Assembly: GCF_044324875.1 (NCBI RefSeq)
Contig: NZ_CP172185.1
Length of the DNA stretch: 64,000 nt
Origin: Escherichia coli
GTDB taxonomy: Bacteria; Pseudomonadota; Gammaproteobacteria; Enterobacterales; Enterobacteriaceae
Direction: 5' to 3' (one strand)
Below the pieces are notes generated by a model. The model did not search any database, was not told the DNA's origin, and was given only the letters and a program-made list of their open reading frames with translations. The position numbers and the translations under genes were made by a program. Below are positions 52,851 to 52,913 of this stretch, in pieces; position 1 is the stretch's first letter, and each line of letters starts with the position of its first letter.

Positions 52851-52913
52851 TTTCCCCCTCGCCCCTTTGGGGAGAGGGCCGGGGTGAGGGGAAACGACCT
52901 CTCAGGAGTCAAC

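Follow-up and report, generated by a model that had tools for sequence, protein, structure and literature searches.

A solo BoxC element in the araA-araD spacer of Escherichia coli

The araA-araD spacer and its G/C-rich element

The window, i.e. the whole 64-kb stretch of Escherichia coli DNA that was analyzed (64,000 nucleotides), carries the genes araB, araA, araD, and polB on its plus strand. The spacer between araA and araD is 168 nt long and holds a REP/BIME unit, followed by a G/C-rich element. An earlier note made from the sequence of the window had described a G/C-rich stretch upstream of araD, between 52851 and 52905, with REPs adjoining it. Such a sequence is present at 52855-52891 on the plus strand, and the gene context was confirmed, with the araD ATG at 52914 and the REP palindromes at 52750-52846. 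The features of the region, with the evidence for each, are as follows:

49532-51232, plus strand: araB (K-12 alignment; RefSeq annotation of near-identical matches).
51243-52745, plus strand: araA (L-arabinose isomerase), the upstream gene (ORF list; alignment to the annotated K-12 araA; RefSeq annotation of near-identical matches).
52750-52846, no strand assigned: REP/BIME unit, one in the window (nested palindromes; weak Rfam naRNA4 matches; other E. coli have one, two, or three in tandem).
52847-52903, plus strand: 57-nt BoxC unit composed of TTGTTTTCC, the 36-nt core, and AAACGACCTCTC, standing where element-less alleles have CGA (comparison of filled and empty sites).
52852-52894, plus strand: predicted RNA hairpin of the araBAD transcript, formed by the C-block and the distal G-block with the middle G-block in the loop (inverted-repeat arms; minimum-free-energy folds).
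52856-52891, plus strand: BoxC/PIT/TMECO core, type B, with one mismatch (consensus match; identity to TMECO no. 3).
52904-52916, plus strand: araD ribosome-binding site, with the Shine-Dalgarno sequence AGGAG at 52904-52908 and the ATG at 52914-52916 (same in alleles with and without the element).
52914-53609, plus strand: araD (L-ribulose-5-phosphate 4-epimerase) coding sequence (ORF list; K-12 alignment; RefSeq; homologues at 98% identity with Pfam PF00596).
53684-56035, plus strand: polB (K-12 alignment; RefSeq annotation of near-identical matches).

The core of the element is the 36-mer CCCTCGCCCCTTTGGGGAGAGGGCCGGGGTGAGGGG, which lies 23-58 nt upstream of the araD start codon. Read from its 5' end, it is composed of a C-block (CCCTCGCCC, 52856-52864), a loop CTTTG (52865-52869), a first G-block (GGGAGAGGG, 52870-52878), a second loop CCG (52879-52881), a second G-block (GGGTGAGGG, 52882-52890), and a final G (52891). 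The C-block can pair with either of the two G-blocks. One C-block followed by two G-blocks is the layout of an intrastrand triplex and not that of a simple palindrome. The inverted repeat proposed earlier was confirmed: a repeat search of the window returned inverted arms at 52852-52865 and 52881-52894 (14 nt, 86% complementary, 15 nt apart). Its description as a near-perfect inverted repeat is incomplete, the sequence being arranged in three blocks of C, G, and G.

The ORF list also contains a GTG-initiated reading frame (52884-53609) that begins inside the element and is in frame with araD. Separately, in one public genome, the AraD gene call (P0005) is 280 aa long and extends 49 residues beyond the normal 231 aa. 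Repeats in the araA-araD spacer may mislead gene callers.

Family identity of the element

Judged by its sequence, the G-rich “palindrome” that precedes araD belongs to BoxC, as a solo copy of subtype B with one stem mismatch. The family has been described under three names, BoxC, PIT elements, and TMECO, which were equated by Holder et al. 2015 (PMC4666352). As cited in that paper, the name BoxC goes with Bergler et al. 1992, where the element was first seen at envM/fabI, and with Bachellier et al. 1999, and the name PIT element with Hoyne et al. 2000 and Hoyne & Maher 2002; TMECO is Holder et al.'s own name. The published consensus is CCCTCNCCC-N3-6-GGGNGAGGG-N3-GGGNGAGGG[G/T/C/-] (PMC4666352). 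It was matched exactly once in the window, at 52856-52890, with 0 matches expected by chance; both this pattern and the 23-mer GGGGAGAGGGCCGGGGTGAGGGG gave one match each in the 64 kb and 0 matches in 100 dinucleotide shuffles. Subtypes are defined by the second loop, which is TTA in type A and CCG in type B, and “mm” denotes a G for T in the C-block (PMC4666352). With CCG at 52879-52881 and CCCTCGCCC as its C-block, the window copy is of type B mm. Its 36-mer is letter-identical to E. coli K-12 TMECO no. 3, recorded as “type B mm” at K-12 282,101-282,136 (Table 1, PMC4666352).

Thirteen K-12 copies were recovered at their published coordinates, one of them beside fabI. A 55-mer query found related places in 5421 of 5426 complete E. 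coli genomes, with a median of 19 and a maximum of 36 per genome. Since it is multi-copy, with a median of 19 places per genome, the element is an interspersed repeat, in keeping with the expected family copy number of about 20-30 per genome. Table S7 of PMC4666352 gives about 1-2 copies for B2 strains, compared with about 30 for B1 strains. The window copy lies outside both genes, as araA stops at 52745 and araD starts at 52914, in agreement with the description of BoxC as always intergenic. The suggestion that this was another intergenic repeat family, distinct from REP, has thus been borne out by the consensus match and the copy number, and the family can be named as BoxC/PIT/TMECO; the genomic search that the earlier note had proposed as a check showed that the motif is not unique to the site.

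BoxC units are roughly 56 bp long and are described as having conserved flanks outside the core. The window copy has the 5' flank TTTTC[CT] (as TTTTCC), and so do four of the six K-12 type B copies that were aligned. Its 3' tail AAACGACCTCTC does not have the GCAC motif that closes most K-12 copies, and bears a loose likeness to GAACAGGCC-GCAC. GAAC-type tails also follow most K-12 type A copies, which are at unrelated loci.

The chance that the element is a variant REP/BIME, or a G/C-rich palindrome of accidental origin, appears negligible to us. It does abut REP directly, and a weak Rfam naRNA4 match (E = 0.052) extends to 52879. However, when aligned to the K-12 spacer, which has REP/BIME at the same position, the similarity is confined to the shared REP, and no similarity to the K-12 spacer REP units was found for 52847-52903. 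An independently published consensus is, moreover, matched exactly by the element where zero chance matches are expected. Both forms of this reading are refuted by the K-12 alignment, the identity to TMECO no. 3, and the consensus match.

An Rfam scan of 52600-53100 (E <= 10) returned no RNA family for the element, giving only weak naRNA4 matches and noise. One sub-threshold naRNA4 match covers the first REP pair (52727-52800; 37.4 bits against a gathering score of 59.5, E = 3.7e-5). We take naRNA4 to be a REP-derived nucleoid-associated RNA.

Both the family and its araA-araD copy are already on record. Table S8 of PMC4666352 gives this 36-mer for SE11, IAI1, 55989, and W, at ~67-68 kb and on the minus strand, and in IAI1 these coordinates correspond to the araD-araA spacer. 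Beyond the enterobacteria, a consensus scan of species genomes yielded at least 120 stretches in four organisms, with no E. coli among the matches listed. Among the matches listed, the three 9-nt blocks recur in Mitsuaria chitosanitabida, a Methylomirabilota MAG, a Contendobacter MAG, and the unclassified MAG GL140_5, and each lineage has its own loops and flanks. M. chitosanitabida has at least 145 copies, with the loop GCTTGC and the tail TCTTCGGGCT, many of them in inverted pairs 80-300 nt apart.

Two further observations concern the genomic surroundings of the family in E. coli. K-12 TMECO copies 3 and 4 are located inside the annotated cryptic prophage CP4-6 (K-12 281800-289600; locus positions 302 and 7447), and the 55-mer query found 48 BoxC-like places on plasmids in the E. 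coli collection. Holder et al. 2015 (PMC4666352) reported that the elements are not associated with phages, plasmids, or mobile elements.

Distribution and polarity at the araA-araD junction

The distribution of the element at this site was surveyed with a junction-spanning query. It was found at the junction in 1568 of 5426 E. coli genomes (28.9%), and the element-less junction CCGGCA-CGA-AGGAG was found in 3765 of the 5426 (about 69%). These two classes cover every genome with a match, and an intermediate junction was seen in none of the 5,426. All 1568 carriers have one junction in common. In genomes without the element, the match starts exactly at AGGAG, which places the right breakpoint at 52904 in 3765 genomes. 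The window junction reads CCGGCA, then TTGTTTTCC, the core, and AAACGACCTCTC (57 nt, 52847-52903), and then AGGAGTCAACATG. Comparison with K-12, another check that had been proposed, showed that the element is absent from K-12 at araA-araD: the K-12 spacer has three tandem BIME units and ends in CCGGCA-CGA-AGGAGTCAACATG. ST131, with one BIME unit, and O157:H7, with two, show the same CGA end and no element. These tandem units are 85 nt long; the window has one, as does ST131, and Escherichia sp. E4742 has three, as does K-12.

Named carriers include O104:H4, O111:H11, IAI1, SE11, 55989, and W, which we take to be members of phylogroup B1. Phylogroups A, B2, and E are represented among the non-carriers, by K-12, ST131, and O157:H7, respectively. 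When the window was aligned with IAI1, 21 of 801 positions differed (2.6%), with zero differences in the 141 nt of 52811-52951, which contain the element and the araD start. The chance of such a difference-free stretch is ~0.03 by a rough Poisson estimate. Constraint, or a recent spread of the allele through recombination, could account for it instead of neutrality.

Outgroup spacers were reached via AraD homologues. Their contents are as follows:

Escherichia sp. E4742 (cryptic clade): three BIME units, CGA junction, no element.
Salmonella enterica, Citrobacter werkmanii, and Citrobacter amalonaticus: no BoxC; in each, a REP directly adjoins the Shine-Dalgarno sequence.
Enterobacter ludwigii / C. 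freundii cluster: short plain hairpin.
Klebsiella pneumoniae-group AraD cluster contigs: inverted pair of BoxC-like units, no REP.
K. oxytoca/Raoultella-group cluster contigs: fused, degenerate BoxC unit, no REP.

Since the empty junction is uniform across E. coli phylogroups and outgroups, the presence of the element in E. coli points to a single derived insertion. From this comparison of alleles, the element at araA-araD is a derived gain in E. coli, with no target-site duplication and with the loss of 3 nt. The most plausible reading of the BoxC-like units of Klebsiella is that they reached this spacer independently. The likeness between the tail of the element and the Klebsiella spacer was also considered as a sign of shared ancestry of the site. 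This was rejected because there is no BoxC at this place in the Escherichia cryptic clade, Salmonella, or Citrobacter, and also because GAAC-type tails follow most K-12 type A copies at unrelated loci. A progenitor junction GGCATTCAGGAG, as in Citrobacter werkmanii, would make the event a clean 54-nt insertion; it was rejected as well, as it occurs in no E. coli genome and the element replaces CGA.

Whether such elements are inserted or deleted in evolution was left open by the 2015 study (PMC4666352), and at the ara site the polarity indicates insertion. A natural pair of filled and empty sites with outgroup polarity is where the modest value of the element lies. Added here to the published record are the polarity of the gain by outgroups, the exact 57-nt extent without target-site duplication, the 3' tail that departs from the GCAC ending of most K-12 copies, and the apparently independent BoxC pair in the Klebsiella spacer. 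A more far-reaching proposal would make BoxC units non-autonomous elements that are mobile now or were so until recently, and the ara site a cleanly polarised insertion of one of them; we put this forward tentatively and think it rather unlikely. If BoxC were mobile, the three-block pattern across lineages would suggest a conserved trans-acting factor or copying driven by DNA structure.

CD and NMR showed that sequences of this class fold, on their G-rich strand, into an intrastrand purine-motif triplex in vitro, and type B mm oligonucleotides have a triplex melting temperature of about 70 C (PMC4666352). In the stem of C-block and middle G-block, the closing pair covaries: E. coli copies have C-G or T-A there, and each of the 56 distinct Mitsuaria copies listed has G-C. 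At the level of sequence, this covariation fits the Watson-Crick duplex of the triplex model. The element might act on the DNA itself, with an intrastrand triplex stalling replication, promoting rearrangement, and explaining the variable number of BIME units. The class does give a polymerase stop as well as a triplex in vitro, loci with the element are more variable between strains than controls (PMC4666352), and the present spacer is itself variable, with 1-3 BIME units and the element present or absent. We nevertheless find this explanation unlikely. The number of BIME units varies in alleles that never held the element, including that of the cryptic clade, the junction is a single one in all 1568 carriers, and in vivo footprinting left the triplex guanines unprotected and did not support a stable triplex (PMC4666352). 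Because BIME variation is found in never-element alleles and outgroups, local variability does not need BoxC, and the variation in BIME number does not depend on it. As for function, the literature has shown none for BoxC elements in the cell, and a search for functional studies from 2016 onward returned only reviews.

The element in the araBAD transcript and among known systems

The G-rich strand of the element is the sense strand of araBAD, and the stable RNA hairpin that the earlier note had expected in this transcript is indeed predicted. Minimum-free-energy folding gave -30.3 kcal/mol with flanks and -25.3 kcal/mol for the core alone. In the predicted stem, the C-block pairs with the distal G-block over 11 base pairs, including one G-U, and the stem ends 12 nt before the Shine-Dalgarno sequence. 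Competing predicted folds were weaker, with -17.3 kcal/mol for pairing of the C-block with the middle G-block and -12.6 kcal/mol for a G-quadruplex. The motif for the latter is present (GGGG-AGA-GGG-CC-GGGG-TGA-GGGG), and its predicted structure loses to the hairpin once the C-block is included. In G4-enabled folding, an RNA G-quadruplex is predicted not to compete with the hairpin. Purine-motif triplexes cannot form in RNA (PMC4666352).

The stability of the predicted hairpin is ordinary for its composition (z = -1.14 against shuffles). Pairing probabilities were computed over the region that begins at the araA stop and extends to +37 of araD, using four alleles found in nature; all four have the same Shine-Dalgarno sequence, spacing, and start codon. 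Predicted probabilities of being unpaired, for the Shine-Dalgarno sequence and the AUG, were:

Window allele (BoxC present): 0.41 and 0.71.
K-12 allele (3 BIME units): 0.41 and 0.87.
ST131 allele (1 BIME unit): 0.43 and 0.87.
O157:H7 allele (2 BIME units): 0.44 and 0.95.

Neither promoter-like nor terminator-like sites were found on either strand of 52600-53050. As summarised in PMC4666352, Hoyne & Maher 2002 reported no promoter or terminator activity of PIT elements and no effect on RNA polymerase.

The further claim of the earlier note, that the hairpin influences araD translation or mRNA processing, found no support in these results: hairpin stability does not exceed that of composition-matched shuffles, and Shine-Dalgarno accessibility is 0.41 with the element against 0.41-0.44 without it. 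The absence of the element from about 69% of E. coli, including K-12, and of any promoter or terminator site from the region also counter an effect on araD regulation. Such a regulatory stem-loop would modulate araD translation, or would serve as a processing or stabilising site that shifts the araA:araD expression ratio in carriers. Its sense orientation and the stable 11-base-pair stem predicted 12 nt before the Shine-Dalgarno sequence are what this would require, the predicted AUG accessibility is lower than in element-less alleles (0.71 vs 0.87-0.95), and the element is unchanged between carriers with differing flanks. We consider a regulatory role improbable all the same, given the ordinary stability and the unaltered Shine-Dalgarno accessibility, the absence of a terminator-like site in 52600-53050, and the inactivity of PIT elements as terminators or promoters and towards RNA polymerase in the work cited in PMC4666352. 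None of the Escherichia, Salmonella, and Citrobacter outgroups that were compared has the element, either. A small translational effect is conceivable, acting through the lower predicted AUG accessibility (from 0.87-0.95 to 0.71).

Ordinary hairpin stability, unchanged Shine-Dalgarno accessibility, and the lack of promoter or terminator activity together favor a neutral passenger, and the element at araA-araD is probably just that, as far as these predictions go. We hold it to be highly probable, taking the explanation as a whole, that this is a solo copy of BoxC, gained as 57 nt in a sub-lineage of E. coli, transcribed as a hairpin, and probably carried as a neutral passenger. In that sub-lineage, the 57-nt unit would have entered the spacer downstream of the last REP and directly before the Shine-Dalgarno sequence of araD. 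It would then be transcribed within the araBAD mRNA, where it most likely folds into a G/C hairpin, some 12 nt before that Shine-Dalgarno sequence, and araD translation should be left essentially unchanged. At most, the hairpin might add one more 3'-exonuclease barrier beside those of the neighboring REPs.

For ara biology the consequences are small: both the repeat and its occurrence at this locus are already catalogued, and araBAD expression is probably unaffected by it. Strain engineers and annotators should be aware that B1-type strains such as W do not have the same araA-araD spacer as K-12.

Compared with known systems, the element shares with REP/BIME that it is intergenic, palindromic, and co-transcribed in an operon. 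REPs block 3'-exonucleases, and by analogy the BoxC hairpin could do the same. The two differ in that their sequences are unrelated and in that BoxC has the three-block C/G/G layout and a much lower copy number. REPs have RAYT transposases, whereas we know of no mobilising enzyme for BoxC. Like MITEs such as ERIC/IRU, BoxC is small, non-coding, polymorphic in presence and absence between strains, and foldable when transcribed. Unlike them, it is only 57 nt long, has no terminal inverted repeats beyond its internal palindrome, and shows no target-site duplication: compared with the empty site CCGGCA-CGA-AGGAG, the filled site CCGGCA[57 nt]AGGAG has lost 3 nt and has nothing duplicated. With intrinsic terminators there is no match on either strand of 52600-53050, and the stem is followed by the tail AAACGACC. 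From the BoxC/PIT/TMECO family the element itself shows no difference, being an exact consensus match, intergenic, and multi-copy.
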